Positions 4,764 through 62,829 of a DNA stretch of 64,000 bases are shown piece after piece. Source of the DNA: Flavobacteriales bacterium (GTDB lineage Bacteria > Bacteroidota > Bacteroidia > CAIKAF01); the NCBI GenBank assembly GCA_022402535.1, contig JAKRSD010000023.1, positions 30,741-94,740 on the forward strand. Direction: 5' to 3'. The position numbers and the translations under genes are program-made. Under the pieces are notes generated by a model. It was not told the DNA's origin. It saw only the letters and a program-made list of their open reading frames with translations, and did not search any database. Every line of letters starts with the position of its first letter. Within the stretch, counting starts at the first letter, position 1.

Positions 4764-7700
4764 CTATCGGGGCCACCATTCCAATTTTTCGCGAATCCGG
4801 CGCGGATTCAATTCCTGCATATTCAGGCGGAAACGAATCTGGTTATACCATTTGATATCCGCAAAAGCCAGATAATCCCGTATGTCTTTAGAATGATACA
4901 GCGGAACAAAAATTTCCAACACATCATTTATCACCGACATCATCACTCCCCCGCTATAGCTGAAGTTTACCGATTTTACCTGATTGCCTGTTCCGGCATC
5001 GGTAACCACCTGCCTGAAAACGGCCAAATCGATATACGGCTTAATCGGAATAGGTCCGGGAACTGATGCCTTCAGATTTAAGGCAATCATCCAACGGTCG
5101 GTTTGACCCAAAGGGGTCAACACTTTAAAGCCACCGTCATATTCATAAAACTGGCGCGAAGAAAGCCCTCGGGTTTCAGCCCTTCCCAGATAATAATTAT
5201 CAAACTTATAATCCCAGAATCCGGGATGACCTGAAAGCCGGTATCTGTAATCAAGTACCGTATTGGCTTTCCCCACAAAAGTTCCGGCAAATACACGGAT
5301 ATCCAATCCTTTATTGGCCGAGAGATACGTGATTTTTTGACGGAATTCCACCGAAAGTTTTATGGCACTTCCGGCGCTTACCCCAGGTTTTGAAAACTTG
5401 TCCAATTCCACAATGTATTCGGCCCAAGCCAATAGCTGATAAGGATGCAGTAATCGGGTATCGCGCATGGAAAAACCGATTTCATTTACGTTGAACGCCA
5501 GATTTTTTCGACCGTACGCAGCACGTAACACATCGGTGGCTTCCAGATAATTGAAAATACTGCGGGCATAGAGCTGGGTTTTTCGTTCGCTGAGCGGACT
5601 CGGCGGTCTGAAATTCACCATGATTTTGGGCATTATCCGGTTCCAGTTCCGGGCCTGGGTGTCGAAAAAATAATCGAACCGGGTATACGCCAGTTTGTAC
5701 CAGACACTTTCCACCCTTTTGGAACGCGGTGTAGAAAAAGCCCCACTGATAATTCCCACCCCGGCAAAACCGATGGGATTGAGTGAAACCATGGGCGCAA
5801 ACAGGTATTCAAATTTCTTACGGATAGGCGTTTTGTTATGAATGGCAATGCCTGCCATGCTTTTGTTATAGTTATTCCAAAGGGTTACGGGCAGATAAAA
5901 CACCTGATTCCGGTTGGGCAGATTGGGCGGTCCCATGATAAAATTAAAACGGGTTTTCTCCATACGGGGCAATACGGCTCCCGTCCTGTAAAGGTTATTT
6001 TTGCGGTTCACTTCCGGAATTACCCGATTCCGGTCAATCTGCACGGACATACCTTCCATTGAAGGCAGAAAAAGCACTTTTTCGCCGCTGAACCCTTCCA
6101 TCCAAACCGTGGCCCCTCCAATGCGTTCATCCTGAAATGTGGTAAGCGTAAACGGTCCGGAAACATTCCCTTTGTTTTGAATTAAAACTCCCGTTTCTTT
6201 TTTACCGGTTTGCGGATTCACGAAGGTGCCCACTTTTTTCACCACATAATCCAAATATCCTTTTTCGGGTAGCAGTTCATCAAAAAACCAGCTTAAATCT
6301 TTCTTGGACTGTTGTTCCATCCAAAACCGGAAATAAACAGGCGTGGAAAAATTCATAGTATTCTGTGCGTAATATCCGCTCATCAACGAATCGAAAAGGG
6401 CTGTGCCTAGGTATTGCTCCAGATAATTAAAATGCATGGCATTTTGCCCCCTTACGGCAATTCCGTAATTCCCATCGGGATATTCATCGGCAGCGAGACC
6501 CGAAGGTTGGTCATTGCCTCTGCGCACTTTGTATTGATAAGGAATATGATCCAAATCATCGCGGCGCAAAAAACGAAGTCCCATCACCGGCAATACCCGA
6601 ATGGGCAATCCGTTATAATCGGGTTTCTTTTCGCGCAGGTACTTGCGATAATAGTATGCACTGAGTCCTTCATTCAACCAGGGATTCTGTTTACCGTCGG
6701 AGCCTACTACACCACTAAACCAGGAGTTCGCCACCATACGCATGGTAATATCTTCTAACGAAAGGCGGGAACGTTTATACCCGATAACAGAAACCATGGG
6801 ATAGCTGCGATCTACCCCGGCATACTTCATCCCGTCGGTAATGGTGTATTGACTATACGGATACTCCCCTATTTTTTCGCTGTAATAGGTTATGGCATTT
6901 TTCAGGTATTCGATTTCGCGGGTCCAAAGCTTTTGAAATTTGGGACGGTAAAAAGCATACACATTCACTTTTTTGCCGGATGGAAGCGTGAATTCTTCTC
7001 CATCAACCCAAAAATCTTTGGATGCAAAAAAGGCAAAATCATTCACGTTGGAAGCTTCGTATTCCAAGGTTTTCAACCCTTTCTTTAGTTCGTTAACCGG
7101 CGCAGGACCATTTGCACGGAAAGCGGCCGTCTGTTTTCTTTTTTCATCCAAAAAGGCTAATTCTTCGGGCGTTTTCAGTTCGCCGGTAGAAGCTACCAGA
7201 TAAGAAGCCGGAAGGGTGAGCCTGACTTTAAAATCTGAAAAAGGAGAAAAGATATTTCCCTGATCGGTAAAGGGCACCGGGTATTGTCCGGTAGTTTCTA
7301 CCCACACGGGCTTAGGAAACCAATGGGTGATGTAGTATTCATGCTGCCTGTGTCCGAATGTGGAAACTCCCGCATCTGGAATTTTCACCCTGAAACTGAT
7401 GTTGAATGTGCAGGAAGTTCCAGGTATTATCGGTTTATCCGGAATCACATAAAGGATGTCGGGGTGGGTGTTGTGGTATCCCCAAACCAAGGGCGTCCCA
7501 TTCGATTGAAAATGCAGAGAATCGGTATACCCGCCATATTTTGCGGGTCGCAATTTGAGTTTTTCGTTGCGTTTGTCGGTTAGCTGATTCGCGAGCGCCG
7601 TGTTATTGGCCGAATACGCATTGGCCCATACATGAAACCATACCGTATCCATCGTGTTTCGGGAGGTATTGACAAAATACACCTCTTCGCGGCCATGAAG

Positions 7701-9655: not shown

Positions 9656-11107
9656 TCAGGCGTCCAACTTTTCTTTCAGCAGGCGTGTGGTTACCTTGGG
9701 ATCGGCTTTGCCTCCTGAAATTTTCATGACTTCGCCCATAAACATGCCGATCAGTCCTACTTTGCCGCCTTTGTATTCGGCTACTTTTTCGGGAAATTTG
9801 GCAATCACCTGATCCACCCAGGCCGAAAGCGCACTTTCGTCGCTCTGCTGAATCAGATTTTTTTCTTCGGCAAGGACGGCTGCCGATTTTATCGGATTTT
9901 CCAGCAAGGCAGGGAAAATATTTTCCGAAGCCACCGTATTGCTCACTTTGCCCGATTTCACCAAAGCAATCAGTTCTCCTATTTTTTCGCCACCGAGCGG
10001 GAATTTTTCAATCGAAAGGCCTTTTTCATTCAGATATGAACGAATTTTACCCATCATCCAGTTGGCCGCCGCTTTATAATCTTCGGTGTGTTTAATAATC
10101 TGTAAAAAATAGGCTACCGTAGCCTTATCTTCCGTAATCCAGTAGGCATCATATTCGGGCAGTCCGTATTGTTTCACAAACTTTTGAAACAACGCTTCCG
10201 GAAGCTCTGGCAGTTCCGATTTAATTTTATCGATATAGGCTTCGCTCACAATAAGGGGCGGAAGATCGGGCTCAGGAAAATAGCGGTAATCGTGTGCCAT
10301 TTCTTTGCTACGCATCGAACGGGTTTCGCCCGAAACGGCATCGAAATTTCGCGTTTCCTGATAAATGGTTTCGCCAGTTTCAAGGCAGTTGCACTGACGC
10401 TGGAATTCAAATTCAATGGCCCGCTGCACATTGCGGATGGAGTTCATGTTTTTTACTTCCACTTTGGTGCCCAACTCCGTGGCGCCTTTCAGCCTTACGG
10501 AAATATTGGCATCGCAACGGAGCGAACCTTCTTCCATATTTCCGTCGCATACATCTAAGTAGCGTACCAGTTTGCGGATTTCGGTTAAGTATAAACCGGC
10601 CTCCTGAGAGGAAGAAATATCGGGACGGGAAACCATTTCCACCAGCGCCACACCGGCCCGGTTCAGGTCTATCAGCGAATCAAACGGATCTTGGTCGTGG
10701 ATGCTTTTTCCGGCATCTTCTTCTAAGTGTATCCGCTCCAAACGGATGTTTTTGGCATTGCCCGCATCATCTTTTATGGTAATGTATCCGTCGTAGCAGA
10801 TGGGTGTATCAAACTGCGAAATCTGATACCCTTTGGGAAGGTCGGCATAAAAATAATTTTTACGGGCAAAACGGTTCACTTCACGGATTTGGCAATTGGT
10901 GGCCAAACCCAGTTTCACGGCCAGTTCCACCACTTTTTCGTTCAGCTTGGGTAAGGTTCCCGGATGCCCCAGGGTGATCACGCTCACACAGGTATTGGGC
11001 GATGCGCCAAACTCGGTACTGTCTGCACTAAAGGCTTTGCTGAGTGTCTGCAGTTGCGCATGCACTTCCAGCCCGATTACGATTTCGTATTTGTCTTCAA
11101 ACTTCAT
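9656..11107 (-). CDS. gatB: Asp-tRNA(Asn)/Glu-tRNA(Gln) amidotransferase subunit B
   Basis: MKFEDKYEIVIGLEVHAQL N-terminus and full-length GatB similarity. Start trimmed to the MKFEDKY ATG (complement of 11105..11107). Confidence 0.9.
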   Translation of the reverse strand: MKFEDKYEIVIGLEVHAQLQTLSKAFSADSTEFGASPNTCVSVITLGHPGTLPKLNEKVVELAVKLGLATNCQIREVNRFARKNYFYADLPKGYQISQFDTPICYDGYITIKDDAGNAKNIRLERIHLEEDAGKSIHDQDPFDSLIDLNRAGVALVEMVSRPDISSSQEAGLYLTEIRKLVRYLDVCDGNMEEGSLRCDANISVRLKGATELGTKVEVKNMNSIRNVQRAIEFEFQRQCNCLETGETIYQETRNFDAVSGETRSMRSKEMAHDYRYFPEPDLPPLIVSEAYIDKIKSELPELPEALFQKFVKQYGLPEYDAYWITEDKATVAYFLQIIKHTEDYKAAANWMMGKIRSYLNEKGLSIEKFPLGGEKIGELIALVKSGKVSNTVASENIFPALLENPIKSAAVLAEEKNLIQQSDESALSAWVDQVIAKFPEKVAEYKGGKVGLIGMFMGEVMKISGGKADPKVTTRLLKEKLDA

Positions 11108-11289
11108 CTTGGGCAAATGTAGCCGTTCCCGGTTTATCTGCCTTACATGTGGATAAATTGACCCCTTATCTGTTAAAACCAACTTCGTAAACTCCTGTAT
11201 TTCAATGTATAAAAATTATGATGCATGCATACCTTTTATATAGTAAAAATGGCTAACTTGCAGACACAAACTGTAGAACCAAGATAATC

Positions 11290-12504
11290 ATGGAACAAAA
11301 TTTCATTCTGCTGGCCATTCCCGTTTTCTTTTTATCCATCGGCATCGAACTTTGGTATTCGCGCAAAAAAGGGGCACGTTGGTATAACTTTGAAGACACC
11401 ATTACCAATCTGAATCTGGGTATCGGCAGTCAGGCAGTGGGGATAATGACCAAACTGTTGCTCGTGGGTTCGTACCATTGGGTATATGAAAACGGACGTC
11501 TGTTCGACTTACCCCAAAACCATTGGCTGGTGTGGATTGCAGCCCTGCTGCTTTTTGATTATATCTACTACTGGGCTCATCGTCTGGGACACGAGTGGAA
11601 TTATATGTGGGGTGCTCATATTGTGCATCATCAGAGTACGGAGTTTAATCTTTCGGTGGCGCTGCGCCAGAGTTGGTTTCATAACCTGATTTCGTTTTTT
11701 ATGTTTCTGCCCATGGCACTGTTGGGTTTTCATACTTATGTGCTGGTTGGCGTGGCGGCATTCACCACCTTATATCAATATTGGATTCACACACGGGCCA
11801 TCAAAAAACTGCCTTGGATTTTTGAATATGTGCTGAACACGCCTTCGCACCACAGGGTTCACCATGCCACCAATGCCCACTATATCGACAAAAATTATGC
11901 GGCCACTTTCATTATCTGGGACAGGCTGCACAACACCTTTATGGAAGAAAAAGAAGAACCCGTTTATGGCATCACCAAACCATTTGAATCGCTGAATCCG
12001 ATTTGGGCCAACCTGCATTACTACAAAGAAATGGCCGAAGGCATGAAACGCGAAAAAGGATTCTGGAACAAACTGGCTTTGTGTTTCCGCGGTCCCGAAT
12101 ACCTGGGGAAACTGCTGAATGAACCCATTCCTGAACCCAAACCTGCGGTGCAGACGGCACTTCCCGTGAAGTTATATGTGCTGATTCAGTTTGTGATTCT
12201 TTCTGCCGGACTGGTAAAATACCTCATGCATTTTGAAGAACTGAGCACGTTTTATAAAATCTCGGGCTTTGGACTTATTATCGCCACCACCCATATCTGC
12301 GCCGGATTGTTGGAAAACAAACGCGCTGCCATCGTAACCGAAGTACTGCGTATAACGGCAGCCTTGCTGGTGTTGAACTCGCTGTATTATTTTAATTATG
12401 CCGAGTGGTTTGCCATTATGCTTACCGGTTCCTTGGTCATTACGGCTATTTCGGCGGTTTGGCTGGCATTCAATGTGAAAACGATACGCGTAAACGCCCG
12501 TTAA
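11290..12504 (+). CDS. Sterol desaturase/fatty-acid hydroxylase-family membrane protein with extra C-terminal TM domain
   Basis: Histidine boxes HRLGHEW, HIVHHQS and HHRVHH in the FA_hydroxylase arrangement. About 130-aa hydrophobic C-terminal extension. Confidence 0.8.
   Translation: MEQNFILLAIPVFFLSIGIELWYSRKKGARWYNFEDTITNLNLGIGSQAVGIMTKLLLVGSYHWVYENGRLFDLPQNHWLVWIAALLLFDYIYYWAHRLGHEWNYMWGAHIVHHQSTEFNLSVALRQSWFHNLISFFMFLPMALLGFHTYVLVGVAAFTTLYQYWIHTRAIKKLPWIFEYVLNTPSHHRVHHATNAHYIDKNYAATFIIWDRLHNTFMEEKEEPVYGITKPFESLNPIWANLHYYKEMAEGMKREKGFWNKLALCFRGPEYLGKLLNEPIPEPKPAVQTALPVKLYVLIQFVILSAGLVKYLMHFEELSTFYKISGFGLIIATTHICAGLLENKRAAIVTEVLRITAALLVLNSLYYFNYAEWFAIMLTGSLVITAISAVWLAFNVKTIRVNAR
12448..12504 (+). 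repeat. Left copy of 57-bp direct repeat (3' end of desaturase gene plus stop)
   Basis: GCGGTTTGGCTGGCATTCAATGTGAAAACGATACGCGTAAACGCCCGTTAATTTT is repeated at 13289..13345 with one mismatch (G/A). Confidence 0.9.
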
Positions 12505-13288: not shown

Positions 13289-13345
13289 GGTTTGGCTGGC
13301 ATTCAATGTGAAAACGATACGCGTAAACGCCCATTAATTTTTGCG
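13289..13345 (+). repeat. Right copy of 57-bp direct repeat
   Basis: Near-identical copy of 12448..12504, read directly from the sequence. It overlaps the stop codon of the convergent gene 13334..14011. Confidence 0.9.
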
Positions 13346-14841: not shown

Positions 14842-14991
14842 GGAAAATTTGATTAGGGGACAAAAGTAAGGGTTAAATCAGAACGCTGCGCTCAAAGATG
14901 GATTACAGAAGTATCGGCGATGACCTGTCCTTTTTATCCGTACAACTACTACTGTTAATGGTTATCTGTTAATCATGAGTAAGAACAGTCC

Positions 14992-15012
14992 CAATACTTA
15001 ATACTCAATACT
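14992..15012 (+). repeat. CAATACT-type heptamer triplet (CAATACTTAATACTCAATACT)
   Basis: Same heptamer family as the arrays at 27579..27615 (inverted) and 28201..28299. Sits between the zupT stop and the PNP gene start. Confidence 0.7.
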
Positions 15013-15017
15013 GTTCC

Positions 15018-15833
15018 CTACGCAAACAACAGCAGACTCAACGCCATCACGCCCATACCGGCCACGAGGCCATATACGGCAATATGGTGTTCGCCGTATT
15101 TTTCGGCGGTGGGCATCAGCTGGTCGAGCGAAATGAATACCATAATGCCGGCCACGGAGGCAAACAATACCCCAAAAACAACCTCATTAATGAACGGCGC
15201 CAATAATAGATAGCCCACCACGGCACCCACGGGTTCGGCCAATCCCGAAAGGAAAGACAACAAAAAGGCACGCCTGCGGCTGCCCGTGGCAAAATAAATG
15301 GGCACCGAAACGGCTATTCCTTCGGGGATGTTATGAATGGCAATCGCCACCGCAATGGAAATTCCCAAAGCCGGGTCATTCAGCGCGGCAATGAATGTGG
15401 CCATACCCTCCGGAAAATTGTGAATGCCGATGGCCAGGGCAGAAAACATGCCCATACGCAATAATTTTCGGCGGCGGGCTTCCGCAGCATCCGAAGCAGA
15501 AAAATCGTTCACGTCCTTCGGTTCGTGCGGATTATCGAACGAAGGCACCAGGCGGTCAATAATGCCGATGAGCAGAATGCCGCCAAAAAAAGCCAGCGTG
15601 GCGTATATATAGCCTTCTTTTTCGCCGAGCGATGTGCTCAGAATATGGCGGGCTTTGGAAAATATTTCCACAAAGGATACATAAATCATCACCCCGGCCG
15701 AAAAGCCGAGCGCTCCCGCCAAAAACTGATGATTGGTTTTACGGGTGAAGAGGGCAATCAGACTGCCCACACCGGTGCTCAACCCCGCAAAAAGGGTTAA
15801 TCCGAACGCAAACCATATATTTTGTGTATCCAT
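15018..15833 (-). CDS. zupT: ZIP-family zinc/metal transporter
   Basis: HNFPEGMA and HNIPEGIAV signature motifs of ZupT/ZIP permeases. 8 TM helices. Confidence 0.85.
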
Positions 15834-25803: not shown

Positions 25804-26841
25804 TTATCCTTTACGCAGCATATCGGCCTTATACAGGCGTGCTACTTCGCGCAGGGTTTCTTCAAACGGAGTGTACGAAAAATCTATATGCTGAAACAGT
25901 TTGGAGTTGTCGTAATAGCTTTTCAGATTGGCCGTTTTGGCCGTTTCGGGGGTGATGAGCGGTTCCCCTCCCGTTATTTTTGACTTAATCGTTTCCGCGA
26001 TTGCCGCCACTTTTAAAAGGGTATTCCCCGCTTTCAGGTAAGGTTTTTTACTGCCTAACATATCGGCCATTTGCTCAAAAGCCTCTTTCAAGGGAATATT
26101 TTGCGACGAAAGAATAAATCGTTCGTGTTTTATGCCGGCAGATTCCAACTGCAATATAGCCCTTACGGCATCCCGCACATCTACCCAACCGTTCACGCCC
26201 GAGGTGTAAAAAGGCTGTCCCTGGGCAATGGAATGTACCACACGTCCCGTGCCCGAATGCCAATCTCCATATCCGATAATCAAGGCCGGATTCACCACCA
26301 ACACATCAAGCCCTTCTTCCGCACCGCGCCATACTTCGCGTTCTCCCGCCTGTTTGGTGATGGCATAATGGGTATTTTCGGGGGCATTTTTCCAGGGTGT
26401 TTTTTCCGAAATAAATCCGTCTTCTTCGGCGTGGCCGAGCGCCGTCACTGAGCTTACATGCACCAGCCTTGATACACCCGTATGCAAAGCCGCATTCACC
26501 ACATTGGCCGTACCCTGCACATTGATGGCTTCCAGTTTGGGATGATGTTTTTTTTCAAACGAAATGTAGCCGGCAAGATGAAAAATTTTATCTACGCCCT
26601 GCATGGCGTTTTCCAGCGAATAGTAATCGGTTACATCGCCCGTAAGCCATTCGATTTGATTCAGCGATTCGGCAGGATTGGGAAGATACGCATGAAATAC
26701 TTTTTCCACGGTTTGGGCCGATGAACGCTCACGGCGTATGGCTTTTACACGGTATCCCTGTGAAACAAGCTCCCGGAGCAGATGCGCCCCCAACAGACCG
26801 GTTCCTCCGGTAACTAATATGGTTTGGTTTTCATTGGGCAT
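25804..26841 (-). CDS. NAD(P)-dependent epimerase/dehydratase (extended SDR; cinnamoyl-CoA/dihydroflavonol reductase-like)
   Basis: N-terminal Rossmann motif ILVTGGTGLLGAHLLRELVSQGYRV and a YxxxK catalytic region. Start overlaps the prsW stop by 1 nt. Confidence 0.8.
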   Translation of the reverse strand: MPNENQTILVTGGTGLLGAHLLRELVSQGYRVKAIRRERSSAQTVEKVFHAYLPNPAESLNQIEWLTGDVTDYYSLENAMQGVDKIFHLAGYISFEKKHHPKLEAINVQGTANVVNAALHTGVSRLVHVSSVTALGHAEEDGFISEKTPWKNAPENTHYAITKQAGEREVWRGAEEGLDVLVVNPALIIGYGDWHSGTGRVVHSIAQGQPFYTSGVNGWVDVRDAVRAILQLESAGIKHERFILSSQNIPLKEAFEQMADMLGSKKPYLKAGNTLLKVAAIAETIKSKITGGEPLITPETAKTANLKSYYDNSKLFQHIDFSYTPFEETLREVARLYKADMLRKG

Positions 26842-27542
26842 TACACTTGCATTTTGTTGGCCGGATTAAACGGCGAATTTTTCCTATGCAAATGTATGGC
26901 TCTTAAGGAAAGTACCACTCCGATAAGTAAAGAAAGTAAGGCCCCGATCACCATAAGTGGAATCTGTTCTGCCGAAAACAACGCAAAATCATAAAAACCA
27001 TGCATAAACACGGCACCAAAAAGTCCTATGAATTTCAGCCCGGTGGAATTGTTTTTGAATTTGGCCAATCCCATAAAATACCCCATAATCACCCCAAAAG
27101 TAACATGCGCCGGAACCGCCGTAAACATACGCAATACAGCCACAGACATGCCTCCCTGTAAAACGTACAGGATGTTTTCCAATGTGGCAAAACCCAGGGA
27201 AACCATTACGGCATAGGTTATTCCGTCGTAAGGCTCATCAAAGGCTTTTTTTCGGTAGGCGTAGGCATCCACGAATACGAATTTCCATCCTTCTTCAAAC
27301 AAAGCCACTATGATGAATGCCGTCACAAAATGTCCCCACAATCCGGAAAGGTATGGGCCTAACACTTCCTGCAGAGCAATCCCGGTAAAAGCTGCCGGGA
27401 ATGCGGATAATGCGCCCAACAAAAAGGAAATCATCAATAGTTTGAGTGGTTCTCTGTCAAATTTATCGCGCCAATAAATGAATACACCCAAGGCCAAACA
27501 GGGCGCCACCGCCAAACCCAGACTGATAAGCAGGTAAATCAT
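26841..27542 (-). CDS. PrsW-family intramembrane glutamic protease
   Basis: EEGWKF (EExxK) motif, FxxxH and HGFYDF motifs in a multi-TM scaffold. Confidence 0.75.
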   Translation of the reverse strand: MIYLLISLGLAVAPCLALGVFIYWRDKFDREPLKLLMISFLLGALSAFPAAFTGIALQEVLGPYLSGLWGHFVTAFIIVALFEEGWKFVFVDAYAYRKKAFDEPYDGITYAVMVSLGFATLENILYVLQGGMSVAVLRMFTAVPAHVTFGVIMGYFMGLAKFKNNSTGLKFIGLFGAVFMHGFYDFALFSAEQIPLMVIGALLSLLIGVVLSLRAIHLHRKNSPFNPANKMQV

Positions 27543-27578
27543 ATGTGCAAATTAGATGGACAAAGTAAGAATTATTAT

Positions 27579-27615
27579 AGTATTTGGTATTGAGTATTAA
27601 GTATTGAGTATTGAG
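27579..27615 (-). repeat. Inverted array of about 5 AGTATYR heptamers (reverse complement of the CAATACT family)
   Basis: AGTATTTGGTATTGAGTATTAAGTATTGAGTATTGAG is the reverse complement of the heptamers in 28201..28299 and 14992..15012. Confidence 0.8.
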
Positions 27616-27697
27616 ACTATGTGACTGAAGTTAACCATTTCTTGAAAAACAAAATCAACCCAAAAAACCTAAGAACATAAAAACATTCAAACAAATA

Positions 27698-27887
27698 CCT
27701 GCCTATCCCCTATTGCCTATTCCCTTTTGCCTATTGCCTATTCCCTTTTGCCTATTCCCTTTTGCCTATTGCCTATTCCCTATTGCCTATTCCCTTTTGC
27801 CTATTCCCTTTTGCCTATTGCCTATTGCCTATTCCCTTTTGCCTATTGCCTATTGCCTATTCCCCATTGCCTTCCCCTATTGCCTAT
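27698..27887 (+). repeat. Tandem heptamer array of about 27 units alternating TGCCTAT and TCCCTTT
   Basis: Direct reading: TGCCTATTCCCTTTTGCCTATTGCCTATTCCCTTT... for about 190 bp. The ORF-track proteins MPIPFCLLPIPF... are translations of this repeat. Confidence 0.9.
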
Positions 27888-27918
27888 ATTTTTTTACATT
27901 TACGGCAAACGAAGATTC

Positions 27919-28161
27919 ATGCGCATCATTGCAACCATACCGCACCCCAAGGTGAAAATTTCGGTCTTTCAGATGAATAATAAATACCTGCTGAAAATGG
28001 AAGCCGGGCCTTACGAGCAGACCTATAAAATTTACGAAGATGAAATCCAATCCATGGAGCAGCTGCAAGCCCTGTGCAACGAAGATTTTATGAATACTGT
28101 CATCAAACGATTTGAAGCTATGCACAGTGATTTTGAATCCAGCCTGAAACAAATAGTTTAA
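27919..28161 (+). CDS. Small hypothetical protein (80 aa; MRIIATIPHPKVKISVFQMNNKYLLKMEAGPYEQ...)
   Basis: ATG-initiated non-repetitive portion of ORF 27727..28161, located between the two heptamer arrays. Confidence 0.4.
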   Translation: MRIIATIPHPKVKISVFQMNNKYLLKMEAGPYEQTYKIYEDEIQSMEQLQALCNEDFMNTVIKRFEAMHSDFESSLKQIV

Positions 28162-28200
28162 TTTGGCAATTTGAAAATTTGAAAATGATAAAATTGTCTT

Positions 28201-28299
28201 GATACTTGATACTCAATACTTGATACTATTTCCTGATACTCAATACCAAATACTCAATACTTTTTTCCTGATACTTGATACTCAATACTTGATACTATT
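28201..28299 (+). repeat. Tandem array of about 14 YRATACT heptamers (TGATACT/CAATACT) abutting the thiolase start codon
   Basis: TGATACTTGATACTCAATACTTGATACTATTTCCTGATACTCAATACCAAATACTCAATACTTTTTTCCTGATACTTGATACTCAATACTTGATACT, ending 3 nt before the ATG at 28303. Confidence 0.9.
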
Positions 28300-28302
28300 C
28301 AT

Positions 28303-29508
28303 ATGAACGCCTACATTTACGATGCCATCCGCACCCCGCGCGGAAAAGGAAAAAAAGACGGAAGTCTGCACGAAGTGCGCCCCGTGAGTTTACTTTCGGG
28401 ATTATTAAAAGAAATCCCCCATCGAAACGGTCTTTCGGCCGATAAACTGGAGGATGTGATCATGGGCTGCGTAACCCAGGTGCGCGACCAGAGTGGCGAC
28501 ATTGCCATGGCGGCCGCCATTGATGCCGGATATCCCGATTCTGCCAGTGCCGTTACCCTCAACCGCTTTTGCGGTTCTGGATTAGAAGCCGTTAATCAGG
28601 CCGCAGCGTTGGTAAATTCCGGTCAGGCCGGGTTTGCCGTGGCAGGCGGAGTGGAAAGCATGAGCCGCAATGCCTTGGGTTCCGATGGAGCCTTTACGCT
28701 CATTGATCCGCTCATGATTACTTCGCACCGTATGATTCCACAGGGCGTTTCCGCCGATCTGATTGCCTCCAAATACGGATATTCCCGTGCCGATTTAGAT
28801 GCTTTTTCGGCAGAATCACACCGCCGTGCGGCACAGGCCTGGACCGAAAACCGCTTTGCCAAAGGCATTGTGCCCGTACGCGACAACAATGGCAAAATCA
28901 TCCTCGACCGCGATGAAACCATCCGCCCCGAAACCACGGTGGAAAAACTCGCCGAACTCAAACCCAGTTTTGAAATGCAGGCCAAAATGGCCGGTTTCGA
29001 CAGCATGGCGCTGCAGCGTTATCCCGAAGTGGAAGAACTCAACTATTTTCACCATGCCGGCAACTCGTCCGGTATTGTAGACGGAGCCGCTGCCGTGCTC
29101 ATAGGAACCAAAGAAGCCGGAGAAGCCGCAGGCATCAAACCCCGTGCCCGTATCCGCTCATTTGCCGTGGTGGGCACCGAACATGTCATCATGCTCACCG
29201 GTCCTTATCCGGCCTCGCAAAAAGCCCTCAAACATGCCGGTATGACTTTCGCCGATATAGACCTGTTTGAAGTAAACGAAGCTTTTGCCGTGGTGCCCAT
29301 GCTCTTTATGGATCAGGCAGGTGTAAGTGCCGACCGCGTAAACGTGAACGGAGGCGCCATCGCCATGGGTCACCCGCTCGGGGCCACAGGTGCCATTTTG
29401 CTCGGCACTGTGCTCGACGAACTCGAACGTACAGGTAAATCCACCGGATTGGTAACCCTCTGCATCGGCGGGGGAATGGGAATCGCCACGGTAATTGAAA
29501 GGGTGTAA
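28303..29508 (+). CDS. Acetyl-CoA C-acyltransferase (3-ketoacyl-CoA thiolase, FadA/FadI-like)
   Basis: [11 protein letters not shown] active-site Cys region, NEAFA, and C-terminal GHPLGATGA and CIGGGMG motifs. Confidence 0.9.
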
Positions 29509-29515
29509 AAACAGA

Positions 29516-29650
29516 ACAAGGATGAAAGAACAAAGATTAAGGACTACGTCTGTTTTTCATCCTTGTCCTTTGATCAAAAAATAGATAAATAGAGTAGAAA
29601 CCGGAGTATCAGGAAAAGAATCTTTCATCCTTGTTCCTTGCTCCTTAATC
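29516..29650. repeat. Inverted-repeat/hairpin-rich intergenic element between the thiolase and dehydrogenase genes (AAGGATGAAAGA motif x3)
   Basis: ACAAGGATGAAAGA (29516..29529) pairs with TTTCATCCTTGT (29557..29568) and with TCTTTCATCCTTGT (29619..29632). GATTAAGGAC (29535..29544) pairs with CTCCTTAATC (29641..29650). Confidence 0.6.
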
Positions 29651-29659
29651 CAAAATAAC

Positions 29660-31759
29660 ATGTTCACCATCACAAAAAATAACGAAATAGCCCATGTAAC
29701 CATGAATGCCGCAGGACCCGTAAATTCCTGGGGGCTGAATGCCGTAATCGAATTGCGTAATATGCTGGACAATGTGCTGGCAGATGCGGAAATCAAAGGC
29801 GTGATTCTTAGCTCAGCCAAAAAAGATTGGTTCGTGGGGGCCGACCTCAAAGAAATCATGGCCACCGACGATATTACAGGCGTGATGCAGATGGGCCGAA
29901 TGCTCACCGATCAGTTCCGCCGTATGGAAACCTCAGGCAAAATGTTTGTGGCCGCCATCAACGGATCGGCGTTGGGTGGCGGATATGAGCTGGCACTTGC
30001 TTGTCATAAACGCATTGCCCTAAACAATCCGCAGACCCGCATCGGATTTCCGGAAGTAACCATCGGATTATTACCGGGAGCCGGCGGAACCCAACGTTTT
30101 CCGCGCCTCGTGGGCATTCAGGCTTCGCTTCCGCTGATGCTGGAAGGAAAACGCCTGGCCGTAGATAAGGCCCTCGGTGCCAAAATGATTGATGCCATAG
30201 CCCAAACGCCGGAAGAAATGATGGATATGGCCACCAAAGCCATCCGCGAACAATTTAACGCCGTACAGCCCTGGGATGTAAAAGGCTACAAAATGCCCGG
30301 TGGCGGTATAGAACACCCCGACAATGTGATGTTTATGGCGGGAGTATCCGGAAACGTAATCAAACGCACATTTGGAAATTATCCTGCGCCCATTTACATC
30401 ATCCGCGCCGTAAACGAAGGCTTGCAACTGCCCTTTGAACGGGCACTGAACAAGGAGCAGGAGTATTTTGAAACCCTGCTGCGCAGCAAAGAATCCAAAA
30501 ATCTCATCCGCACTTTATTTCTGCACATGGGAGAAGCCGCCAAAATACCCGCTTCGCTCAAAGAAGTGGAAACCCTTCCCGTGCAGAAAATCGGCATTTT
30601 GGGTGCCGGCATGATGGGTGCCGGTATCGCGTATGTAAGTATCCTGGCCGGATACGATGTGGTGCTGAAAGACCGCGACAAAGAAAGCGCCGAAAAAGGT
30701 AAAGACTACTCGCGCAAACTGCTGGATGAAAGCATCAGCAAAGGAAAGAGCACCCGCGAAAAAGCCGATGCCCTGCTCGAAAAAATAAAAACCACCGGCA
30801 ATGCCGACGACCTGAGCGGATGCGACCTCATCATAGAAGCCGTGTTTGAAGACCGTGCACTGAAAGCCGCCGTGACCAAAGAATCCGAAGCGGTGATGAA
30901 CCCCAAAGGCGTATTCGCCTCCAACACATCCACCCTGCCCATTACCGGACTGGCTGAGGCTTCTGCCCGACCTGATAATTTTATCGGGCTGCACTTCTTT
31001 TCGCCGGTAGATAAAATGCAACTGGTGGAAATCATCCGCGGAAAAAACACCTCGGACTTTGCCGTGAAACTCTGCCTTGAATACGTGCAGAAAATCAAAA
31101 AAACACCGATTGTGGTGAACGACGGACGCGGATTTTTTACCTCACGCATATTTACCACCTATCTGTTTGAAGCCTTTGAAATGGTGGCCGAGGGCGTAAG
31201 CCCCGCATTGATTGAAAACTGCGGAAAAATGACGGGCATGGCCACATCTCCGTTGGCGGTAGCCGATGAAGTAAGCTTGGAACTCATATACAAAATAATG
31301 CTGCAGACCGAAAAAGATTTGGGCACGGCATATAACACGCCCGGCGCCGCCCTGATTAAAAAAATGGTGGGCGAACTGAAACGTTTAGGCCGCAAGAGCG
31401 GAGGCGGATTTTATGAATACCCCGAGGGCGGAAAGAAAAAGTTATGGAAAGGCCTGAGCGAATTGGTTAAGCCGGCAGCGGAGCAACCTGATGCCGAAAC
31501 AGTAAAACAGCGTCTGTTATACATACAGGCTTTGGAAGCCGCCAAATGCTGGGAAGAAGGCATTGTACAAAAACCGGCCGATGCCGATTTAGGTTCCATA
31601 TTTGGGTGGGGATTTGCCCCGCATACGGGCGGTGTATTGAGTTATATTGACCATGTGGGCCTGCCTGCCTTTTTAGCCCGTGCGGAAGAATTTGCCACAA
31701 AATACGGAGAGCGGTTTACGCCTTGTAAGAAGTTGAGGGAGATTAAAAGGGTGTATTGA
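29660..31759 (+). CDS. Multifunctional fatty-acid oxidation protein: enoyl-CoA hydratase/3-hydroxyacyl-CoA dehydrogenase (FadB/FadJ-like)
   Basis: N-terminal crotonase fold ([11 protein letters not shown]) followed by an NAD-binding [14 protein letters not shown] dehydrogenase domain. 699 aa. Confidence 0.9.
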
Positions 31760-61614: not shown

Positions 61615-62829
61615 CTACAGGTAAGTTTTCATAAACTCGGACACCGAGTCGCACATATGGTTAAGTTGCTCTTGGCTCAATCCCTGATGACAACCCAATA
61701 ACATTCCCCCGCCCATCACCTTATCGGCTTCAGCATATCCGCCTTGTGCGCGTTTGCATGCAATATTTTTAAACCCGGGCTGCCTGAGGATATTTCCCGT
61801 AAAGACGGTACGGGTCTGAATATTGCGTTTCTCTAAGAATATCTGTAAATCTTTACGGATGAAAGGGGCATTTTCACGAAGGGTAACGGGGAAAGCCAAC
61901 CATCCGGTACGGGAATCTTTCAATTGCTCCGGAAGAATAAAAAACGCCTCATACTGAGCAAAGAAATTTCTCAGGTGATTATAATTGTGAATCCGGGTAT
62001 CGATATTCGCCTGTAATTTGGCCACCTGAACTAACCCGAAAGCAGCCCCCATTTCCGAAGGCTCCACATTGTAACCCGGCTCTTCAAACACAAACTTGGC
62101 ATCGTAAGGAATTCCGTCCACCTCTACATTAAAGCGGTTTTCAATTTTTTCAGATTCCACAAAAAGCGAAGAACTTCTTCCCCAGCTTCTGAGTAGTTTT
62201 CCCCGGCGAAGATGTTCGTCGTCGTTCACACACAACATGCCTCCGTTTCCTCCGCAGTTTACCACATGCGATCCATAAAAGCTGGTCGTACTCATATCCG
62301 TAAACCTTCCACTGCTGCTTCCTCCGATTTCTGCACCCAGTGTATCGGCAGAATCTTCCAACACAAACAGATTATATTTATCGGCTATGCGTCTCAGCTC
62401 TTGCCAGTCAGGTAAATTACCGATCAGGTTGGGAATAAAAAGTGCCTTGGTTTTAGGCGTAATCATTTCTTCCACCTTATTCACATCTATATTATAGGTG
62501 CCTTCTTCTACATCCACAAAAGCAGGTATCCATCCTTTTTTCACCAAAGGAGCCACGGTTGTGCTGAATGTAAGTACCGGAGTAATTATTTCCGAACCCT
62601 CAGGAAAATCAAGCAAATCGGCCGCCAGATACAATGCCGTAGAACCGGAATTCAACATGATGCCATGCTTTTTGGCATATAATGCGGCCACTTTTTCTTC
62701 CATTTCGCGCACGTGTTTCCCCATCTGGGTTGTTGTGCGGAGTACATTGACTACGGCGGCTATTTCATCTTCGCCATGTACACTTTTACCATACGGTACA
62801 TGAATATATTGAGTTGTTTCGGTTGACAT
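61615..62829 (-). CDS. DegT/DnrJ/EryC1/StrS-family PLP enzyme (RfbH/CDP-4-keto-6-deoxyglucose-3-dehydrase-like)
   Basis: Fold-type I aminotransferase/dehydrase signatures (LNSGSTALYLA, SFYGSHVVNCGGNGGM). 404 aa. Confidence 0.75.
   Translation of the reverse strand: MSTETTQYIHVPYGKSVHGEDEIAAVVNVLRTTTQMGKHVREMEEKVAALYAKKHGIMLNSGSTALYLAADLLDFPEGSEIITPVLTFSTTVAPLVKKGWIPAFVDVEEGTYNIDVNKVEEMITPKTKALFIPNLIGNLPDWQELRRIADKYNLFVLEDSADTLGAEIGGSSSGRFTDMSTTSFYGSHVVNCGGNGGMLCVNDDEHLRRGKLLRSWGRSSSLFVESEKIENRFNVEVDGIPYDAKFVFEEPGYNVEPSEMGAAFGLVQVAKLQANIDTRIHNYNHLRNFFAQYEAFFILPEQLKDSRTGWLAFPVTLRENAPFIRKDLQIFLEKRNIQTRTVFTGNILRQPGFKNIACKRAQGGYAEADKVMGGGMLLGCHQGLSQEQLNHMCDSVSEFMKTYL

Follow-up and report, generated by a model that had tools for sequence, protein, structure and literature searches.

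The 64,000-nt stretch of DNA analysed here (contig JAKRSD010000023.1 of a Flavobacteriales bacterium, assembly GCA_022402535.1; this whole stretch is hereafter the window) carries three blocks of tandem heptamers between the divergent gene prsW and the thiolase gene of a beta-oxidation pair, and these blocks bracket a small conserved open reading frame (ORF). On balance, we regard them as probable hypervariable intergenic heptanucleotide simple-sequence repeats (SSRs), changing by slippage in steps of 7 nt, and not as a fad switch or a mobile element. Strain comparison shows the change of copy number in 7-nt steps; the slipped-strand mechanism behind it is inferred. Heptamer arrays are a trait of the lineage and not of this locus, which stands out only because three arrays, of two families, surround one small gene and because a hairpin-forming spacer lies nearby. 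Why bacteria accumulate 7-nt repeats, and whether such repeats act, has been an open question since the short tandemly repeated repetitive (STRR) sequences of cyanobacteria. The locus is a natural experiment in this respect, with three arrays, two unrelated units, a conserved small gene and copy numbers that differ at about 97% identity.

The left array (27579-27615) consists of five AGTATTG units on the plus strand, which is YRATACT on the minus strand (5.3 copies and 83% matches in Tandem Repeats Finder), and it is directed at the prsW start codon (27542) from a distance of 36 nt. The middle array (27700-27887, plus strand) extends over 188 nt with about 27 units of TGCCTAT, TCCCTTT and TCCCTAT (TGCCTAT/TCCCTWT, 87-88% matches); it is pyrimidine-rich on the sense strand of the small ORF and ends 31 nt before its ATG. 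The stretch between the two, atattttttt(t)acatttacggcaaacgaagattc, is kept across strains. The right array (28198-28296, plus strand) is directed at the thiolase ATG (28303). A sequence-only reading of this DNA had described the three blocks, and Tandem Repeats Finder recovers them all, far above chance: runs of three YRATACT units, with at most one mismatch, number seven in the window and none in 100 shuffles. The arrays show the head-to-tail 7-nt unit, in at least three copies and above chance, that defines a heptanucleotide SSR. The same reading had given the right array about 14 YRATACT units ending 3 nt before the ATG. The number of units holds, but the array is less regular than this implies (period 7, 14.3 copies, 65% matches; period 14, 71%), and its last canonical TGATACT ends at 28296, 6 nt short of the ATG. 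It is an impure array with a higher order of 35 nt, in which four YRATACT units and one T-rich unit (tatttcc, ttttttcc or tattcat) recur three times.

As had been claimed, the left array is the reverse complement of the right one, with a perfect 19-nt inverted match (27579-27597 against 28236-28254) and further imperfect inverted matches of 25-34 nt. An isolated CAATACT/TAATACT triplet, also reported earlier, does lie at 14992-15012 (plus strand) between zupT and the PNP gene. By reading, 20 of its 21 bases match the reverse complement of the left array; it starts 5 nt past the stop of zupT, which is on the minus strand, so that on the zupT mRNA it reads AGUAUUG, in reverse orientation. We considered whether a lag-7 signal is general to the intergenic DNA of the window, and rejected this: the periodicity is restricted to four of the 38 intergenic spacers (27543-27918, 28162-28302, 29509-29659 and 14842-15017). 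Since the repeat units contain no stop triplets, all three plus-strand frames through the middle array are open. A 144-aa ORF that traverses it is an artefact of these stop-free units; every homolog of the small ORF begins at MRI.

The main evidence comes from related strains. In the DNA flanking the locus, the contigs L012 and L013 have 96.8-97.9% coding nucleotide identity to the window and L002 has 85-97%. In all of these strains the three blocks recur at unchanged positions, much shortened. Their middle array has 5-9 units against 27 in the window, their right array 8-10 against 14, and their left array is made of 3-4 units of the variant RGTATCW. Length polymorphism, which the sequence-only reading had put forward as a check, is found in all three blocks. 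Aligned leftward from the thiolase ATG, the sequences of the window and L012 have nine identical units and are then offset by exactly four units (28 nt), with atttgaaaatgataaaattgt upstream of the array common to both. Such whole-unit steps between close relatives are what is expected of a heptanucleotide SSR. Four somewhat more distant relatives (L006, L009, L014 and L022, with 84-94% identity in the small protein) have no arrays at these sites, and L010 has a remnant of a YRATACT array at its contig end, downstream of the small ORF. This remnant, among relatives otherwise free of arrays, indicates that the right array is probably older than the other two.

The non-repeat DNA of the locus also differs between these strains. 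The segment between the left and middle arrays (window 27616-27698) is unrelated in L013 and L002, in which the flanking genes are about 92-98% identical; this points to a rapid turnover of the whole spacer, as in a replacement hotspot. In addition, 52-130 nt of extra sequence, without counterpart in the window (28162-28200), lie between the stop of the small ORF and the right array in L012 (339-420), L013 (1258-1335) and L002 (10244-10390). In L002 one piece of this segment is bordered by the direct repeat AATTTGATAATTTA and resembles a small insertion/deletion footprint, and a motif similar to this repeat, gctacgcttcgct, occurs three times in L044 (5230-5650), a contig of the clade. No further exact copy of the approximately 52-nt segment was found in any locus examined.

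Repeats of this kind can be collapsed or over-expanded by assembly, and the long arrays could in principle be artefacts. Indeed, a second assembly of this strain, made independently from short reads (Logan, L165), has contigs that break within the middle and right arrays: the first 40 nt of the middle array are present, and the sequence picks up again 33 nt before the thiolase ATG. However, this assembly reproduces the array ends exactly, including the left array base for base, and related strains from other samples have the same blocks at the same positions, so that we hold an artefact to be very improbable. The block ends are confirmed by this second assembly, and the internal copy numbers (27 and 14) are those of the window's assembly alone. 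The opposite end of the Logan contig, at about window position 13303, has no repeat. In practical terms, heptamer arrays fragment short-read assemblies and inflate ORF calls.

The second line of evidence is the distribution of heptamer arrays across the clade. Around the homologs of the small ORF (323 kb from 23 species-level metagenome-assembled genomes, MAGs), 20 of the 36 tandem arrays have a period of 7, 14, 21 or 28, and the heptamer units are species-specific. In a total of 445 kb from the clade there are 40 merged arrays, 35 of them intergenic, compared with an intergenic fraction of 11.7% (p = 8e-28). The sequence-only reading had stated that arrays at very many intergenic sites would indicate a generic repeat, and for the clade these 40 period-7 arrays in 445 kb are essentially that situation. 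The non-coding location, the many dispersed loci and the several types of unit found there are all features by which SSRs are recognized. From the window's own genome, 64 kb were examined, with period 7 in four spacers. An association of the arrays with start codons finds no support: clade arrays lie beside stops more often than beside starts (22 against 13), with mild enrichment near gene ends only, and among the matches listed for JGI (Joint Genome Institute) metagenomes 66 arrays run forward to a start, 70 toward a stop and 30 lie in coding sequence. These metagenome matches, made with arrays of three YRATACT units, come from at least 120 contigs with a GC content of 0.25-0.71, and 52 of the 120 loci listed also have other heptamer arrays.

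Arrays with these properties have precedents. According to the accounts of the Mrazek 2007 survey in PMC4679880 and PMC4692102, among the long SSRs of bacteria heptamers form the most abundant class, and a proposed origin is polymerase slippage with a 7-nt footprint. As far as these accounts describe them, such SSRs resemble the present arrays in their tandem 7-nt units, intergenic location, sporadic occurrence across lineages and length variation among relatives, and period 7 is dominant here too; in contrast, this lineage, these units and composite three-array loci with inverted arms do not figure in what they relay of the survey. The closest likeness is to the TAACTGA repeats of Beggiatoaceae, Cyanobacteria and Flavobacteriia (MacGregor 2015, PMC4679880), which lie just upstream of starts devoid of a Shine-Dalgarno (SD) sequence and are sometimes reversed after stops. 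The same study describes intergenic assemblages of heptamer repeats in Gramella, Aequorivita and Elizabethkingia, which close relatives do not have and in which contigs end. Here too, several heptamer types can share a spacer, the spacers of relatives are shorter and repeat-free, contigs end within arrays, and arrays run forward near SD-less starts (the right array at 6 nt, the left at 36 nt and the distal arm of the thiolase-fadB spacer, described below, at 9 nt) or are reversed right after a stop, as is the triplet near zupT. The units, however, are different, being YRATACT, TGCCTAT/TCCCTTT and GAACAAG/CTTGTTC in place of TAACTGA. Moreover, the arrays are longer than in most TAACTGA genomes, and inverted hairpin-forming arrays are prominent, whereas in BOGUAY a single indirect repeat was counted among 170 TAACTGA sets (PMC4679880). 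A literature search for arrays of exactly TAATACT or TGATACT retrieved nothing relevant. The cyanobacterial STRR sequences (Calothrix PCC 7601) and the GGGGAYT/GGGAATC arrays of Nostoc and Xanthomonas are alike in having several heptamer families per genome, intergenic and within operons, as far as they are described in PMC4692102. In Xanthomonas and Nostoc, extensive variation in length and sequence among close relatives, inverted arrangements and stem-loop potential are reported (PMC4692102). Those arrays are G-rich and quadruplex-capable, whereas the present ones, on the sense strand, are poor in G and rich in A/T or in pyrimidines.

Under the SSR explanation, slipped-strand mispairing, in steps of 7 nt, would create, lengthen and shorten the arrays, and these would persist where the sequence is least constrained. 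Initiation without an SD sequence would leave the DNA up to the start codon free to vary, provided that the leader is A/U-rich, G-poor and unstructured. None of the 56 predicted genes of the window has an SD-like motif (GGAG, GAGG or AGGA, 4-20 nt upstream), which fits SD-independent initiation as in Bacteroidota, and as sense RNA the three arrays are unstructured, with z scores of +0.73 (left, in the prsW sense), +1.42 (middle) and +1.04 (right). The inverted appearance of the YRATACT arrays may then be explained by each being directed at its own downstream start, that of prsW (minus strand) or that of thiolase (plus strand). Sequence also seems to pass between the two arrays, since rare variant units are common to both: ATACTCAATACCAAATACT in the window, and TGATACTTGCTACC between the left array of L013 and the right array of L002. 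This suggests that the arms either exchange sequence or are under selection to stay complementary. The small ORF would be an ordinary resident gene caught between the arrays.

The proposal of a slipped-strand phase-variation module acting on promoter spacing, made from the sequence alone, is upheld as to the change of copy number, since all three blocks differ between strains, one of them by exactly 4 x 7 nt. Its promoter-spacing part is unlikely, since promoter hexamers leave no room between them for arrays of 100-190 bp. Any effect on expression would be neither that of an on/off switch nor that of a specific fad regulator. A graded effect of array length, through the 5' untranslated region (UTR) or through upstream spacing, is possible by analogy; it would probably operate via the leader length of thiolase and prsW, and probably also via the distance between the core promoter of the small ORF and the DNA upstream of it. 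The analogy is with the (ATCTTTC)n repeats of hmw1A and hmw2A in Haemophilus influenzae, a heptamer SSR transcribed in the 5'-UTR, where it forms an RNase III-processed hairpin and confers graded expression (PMC12721329). In both systems a heptamer SSR of variable copy number precedes a start codon and the repeat can be the arm of a hairpin; the variation seen here is between strains. However, function, transcript and RNase III cut have been demonstrated for hmw, whereas here we have the sequence, in which the right array is unstructured and precedes a metabolic gene and not an adhesin. As to promoters, the motif gaaaatgataaaattgtc, directly upstream of the right array and kept in three strains, is compatible with a candidate promoter. 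Scans for sigma-70-type promoters and for terminators gave weak hits, no better than in shuffles. An octamer, AATTTGAA, repeated 3.4 times at 28160-28186 right after the small-ORF stop, places the motif TTTG three times upstream of the right array.

The neighbouring spacer between the thiolase gene and the fadB-like gene (29509-29659) shows another side of the heptamer arrays. Pfam confirms the gene names assigned earlier on both sides of the locus and near the isolated triplet (PrsW, thiolase, FadB-like, ZIP and PNP): prsW (26841-27542, minus strand) encodes a PrsW-family intramembrane protease (PF13367, E = 2.2e-38), the thiolase gene (28303-29508, plus strand) has Thiolase_N and Thiolase_C, and the FadB-like enoyl-CoA hydratase/3-hydroxyacyl-CoA dehydrogenase (29660-31759, plus strand) has ECH_1, 3HCDH_N and 3HCDH. 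Starting 5 nt past the thiolase stop, a purine-rich arm on the plus strand (29514-29543; GAACAAG GATGAAA GAACAAA GATTAAG) forms the predicted 5' side of a hairpin. It is followed on the same strand by a proximal pyrimidine-rich arm (29555-29575; TTTCATC CTTGTCC TTTGATC), recognized from sequence and fold and continued by an A-run, and by a distal one (29623-29650; TTTCATC CTTGTTC CTTGCTC CTTAATC) that ends 9 nt before the ATG of the fadB-like gene (29660). The 5' arm can pair with either 3' arm, and the minimum-free-energy (MFE) fold selects the distal, fadB-proximal one, with a 16-bp stem in the MFE and centroid folds (z -2.93).

This architecture is common to the spacers of the window, L022 (11501-11743) and L006/L014 (13116-13404 and 13191-13460, respectively), with units that are partly different: a purine-rich arm past the stop, one or more complementary pyrimidine-rich arms, an A-run and, 9-14 nt ahead of the ATG, a terminal arm, making one or two hairpin modules according to the species. 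The z scores are -2.9 for the window and -6.2 and -8.8 for the L022 and L006/L014 spacers. Relatives without arrays at the three sites (84-94% protein identity) have other heptamer arrays in this spacer. The inverted arrays of the operon spacer hold a hairpin architecture while their sequence changes.

A similar geometry is found in metagenomes. Among the matches listed, 23 neighbouring pairs of YRATACT arrays have the order (AGTATnn)n-spacer-(nnATACT)n, seven have the opposite order and 20 are direct repeats; the 23 to 7 polarity has a two-sided binomial p of about 0.005. Each of the 23 pairs of the favoured polarity is contained in one ORF-free spacer, in most cases between co-directional or convergent genes; the opposite pairs are mostly facing arms of two adjacent modules. 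Inverted arrays occur, for instance, in L053, L058, L060, L065, L070, L076, L098, L104 and L110, and also in L116, L119, L124, L126, L138, L140, L149, L159 and L163. These inverted modules fold far better than shuffles, and in the matches listed the hairpins typically begin 0-20 nt past a stop and finish about 6-38 nt before the next ATG. As the polarity of a palindrome is the same on both strands, the direction of genes or of replication cannot cause the bias. The polarity and the predicted intergenic hairpins of inverted YRATACT arrays hint at a role at the RNA level, and the bias suggests a constraint beyond neutral slippage. Together with the conserved geometry, stop, arm, arm, start, it is the most interesting residue of this analysis.

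A tentative alternative, to which we give limited weight, is that RNA hairpins are built from the arrays: a purine-rich arm would follow a stop and its G-poor complement precede a start, and the hairpin would gate or couple translation, provide an RNase III site or stabilise the transcript. At the present locus, one such module would be formed by the left and right arrays, which would enclose the small ORF and pair across about 600 nt on a long transcript. The common architecture and strong folding of the thiolase-fadB spacers, the 23 to 7 polarity and folding of the metagenome modules and the precedent of hmw1A, in which a heptamer SSR forms a hairpin that functions in the 5'-UTR and is cleaved by RNase III (PMC12721329), all speak for it. 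Furthermore, the left and right arrays, if co-transcribed, pair in the MFE and centroid folds of both the window and L002. Yet at the locus the arms are split by a gene and a 190-nt array, unlike those of all 23 metagenome modules listed, and a transcript that includes both would need to come from upstream of 27579, from a promoter located within prsW or directly next to it. Folding of the 741-nt region is no better than that of its shuffles (z +0.36), and the right array alone is unstructured. Arrays in convergent spacers cannot act on a start codon, and template-switch (fold-back) replication can make and maintain inverted arrays without selection. In a broader form, heptamer arrays in SD-poor bacteria would be the evolvable arms of polar intergenic RNA hairpins that gate or couple downstream translation or mark RNase III cuts; the arrays around prsW, the small ORF and thiolase would be a module co-evolving across a gene, and the thiolase-fadB spacer its canonical form. 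This generalization seems to us doubtful. A scan of the window against Rfam at gathering thresholds gave no match, and a permissive scan of 27400-29750 gave two hits at chance level (E about 0.8-0.9).

Several observations weigh against the SSR explanation. The first is the polarity bias among the matches listed, which neutral slippage alone does not account for. The second concerns a spacer between convergent genes in the clade, which retains an array while the unit changes: CACCTAT in L029 (145-171), TTCGTCC x13 in L032 (7295-7385), CCTAATA in L033 (7452-7480) and ACCTATT x9 in L035 (7422-7485), all pyrimidine-rich on the same strand, as in the middle array of the window. The spacer is orthologous in these contigs, and its right-hand 822-aa protein is 90-93% identical among L032, L033 and L035. 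Orthologous spacers keep arrays across species while units change, which purely neutral slippage does not predict. The third is the clustering of the signal in the window, where three of the four period-7 spacers sit at one locus, more than random scatter would give. Finally, the exact Bacteroidota -7 box TAnnTTTG was not found in the region.

A further possibility is that the arrays are iterated protein sites, read either as heptads by a DNA-binding repressor or by a single-strand RNA binder with a 7-nt footprint, and that through them prsW, the small ORF and the fad genes are controlled. The sequence-only reading had proposed sites of this kind for a regulator of the fad operon. Contiguous 7-bp units, direct and inverted, do lie beside three start sites, the alternation of CCTAT and CCTTT in the middle array recurs in distant relatives (CACCTAT CACCTTT in L029; CACCTAA TACCTAT in L035), and the polarity bias of the inverted arrays is compatible with head-to-head binding of a protein. 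On the RNA side, Csp proteins bind one heptamer each, and binding of single-strand RNA by Csp- or S1-like proteins was proposed by MacGregor for the TAACTGA repeats (PMC4679880). However, the units differ between the blocks, and at orthologous sites between strains and species, while the neighbouring small protein is 84-98% identical. The relatives L006, L014 and L022 have the same operon and no YRATACT or TGCCTAT arrays there, and YRATACT is found beside unrelated genes, as between zupT and the PNP gene, as well as in the metagenome contigs; heptamers also occupy convergent spacers. The idea of a fad regulator is thus left without support, and we judge protein sites in general to be unlikely.

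A DNA-binding precedent is the omega repressor of plasmid pSM19035, for which 7-10 contiguous 7-bp units, direct or inverted, lie before promoters and beside the gene of a protein of about 70 aa. The present heptads vary by block and strain, and the locus is chromosomal, not one of plasmid partition or copy control. Operators of this type would be expected to have one consensus, conserved with the regulator, whereas here the three blocks use different units and relatives with an 84-94% identical protein have no arrays. Nor is a cognate ribbon-helix-helix repressor apparent at the locus, since the 80-aa protein is not predicted to be one. Its confident AlphaFold model (pLDDT 90.9) has four beta-strands followed by two helices, and is neither a ribbon-helix-helix nor an OB fold. 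We considered the small protein as the one that binds the arrays, and set this aside: it has no Pfam match and no convincing structural relative, nucleic-acid-binding or other, the best Foldseek match in the PDB having E = 0.28.

The small ORF itself (27919-28161, plus strand, 80 aa) is, by its homologs and synteny, a genuine resident gene, bracketed by repeats but no part of them. It has 45 homologs (P0001-P0045) of about 80 aa and 50-98% identity, with an invariant N-terminal motif, MRI..T.PHP..ISVFQMN, all from uncultured MAGs of the Flavobacteriales, Bacteroidia or Crocinitomicaceae type. It is located between prsW and thiolase in close relatives, including the four array-free ones, and in one copy per related locus examined. 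The family adjoins fad genes only in the closest relatives, and a gene is inserted between it and thiolase in L006 (a 383-aa protein, 10530-11681) and L014 (a PHO4 phosphate transporter, 10401-11804), two relatives with 90-94% identity in the small protein; this indicates that it is not tightly coupled to the fad genes. Exact-protein look-ups of the small ORF and of the gene at 61615-62829 gave no match, which for the small ORF is probably explained by short-read contigs breaking on both sides of it.

The conservation of this gene also decides the case of a mobile or miniature element with inverted heptamer-array ends and the small ORF as cargo, another of the roles suggested from the sequence. 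Inverted arrays with arms of 19-34 nt do bracket the gene, and one metagenome contig, L076, also has arrays on either side of a small gene; in L076 and similar contigs, however, the arrays on the two sides belong to two separate intergenic hairpin modules, whose arms face each other. The small ORF stays between prsW and thiolase in L006, L009, L014 and L022, without arrays; the arrays vary independently, and the gene is single at each related locus. No target-site or other direct duplication was seen by eye in the flanks, and no transposase or recombinase was seen next to the small ORF. Presence or absence as a unit, target-site duplication and multiple copies, by which a transposon or a miniature transposable element with inverted repeats (MITE) is recognized, are not what we observe, and an element of this type is hardly credible.

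The comparison with repetitive extragenic palindromic (REP) sequences and bacterial interspersed mosaic elements (BIMEs) is less one-sided. REPs are fixed, imperfect palindromes of 20-40 nt, spread by a REP-associated tyrosine transposase (RAYT). The likeness lies in the intergenic location, in co-directional or convergent spacers, the hairpins and the many copies, and the inverted-array modules of the metagenomes behave in this way. By contrast, the three blocks of the locus are direct arrays without self-pairing, and the stems described here are made of tandem heptamers, variable in number and sequence, and palindromic only in the thiolase-fadB spacer and the metagenome modules.

Two of the contigs used here call for a remark. 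L022 (CAYYRB010000040.1) is labelled Candidatus Competibacteraceae, a gammaproteobacterial family. Its locus is syntenic with the present Flavobacteriales-type locus and its DNA is 70-82% identical, so that the label is probably a binning or naming error. L044, for its part, is very rich in arrays: 16 kb of it contain eight or more heptamer arrays that differ in unit (5100-6250, 10500-10620 and 15470-15770), together with 8-10-nt repeats and a repeat unit of about 120 nt. One of its arrays, TAATACN x8, ends 13 nt before an ATG, and another, of TCGTAAC, encodes the last codons and the stop of a homolog of the small ORF.

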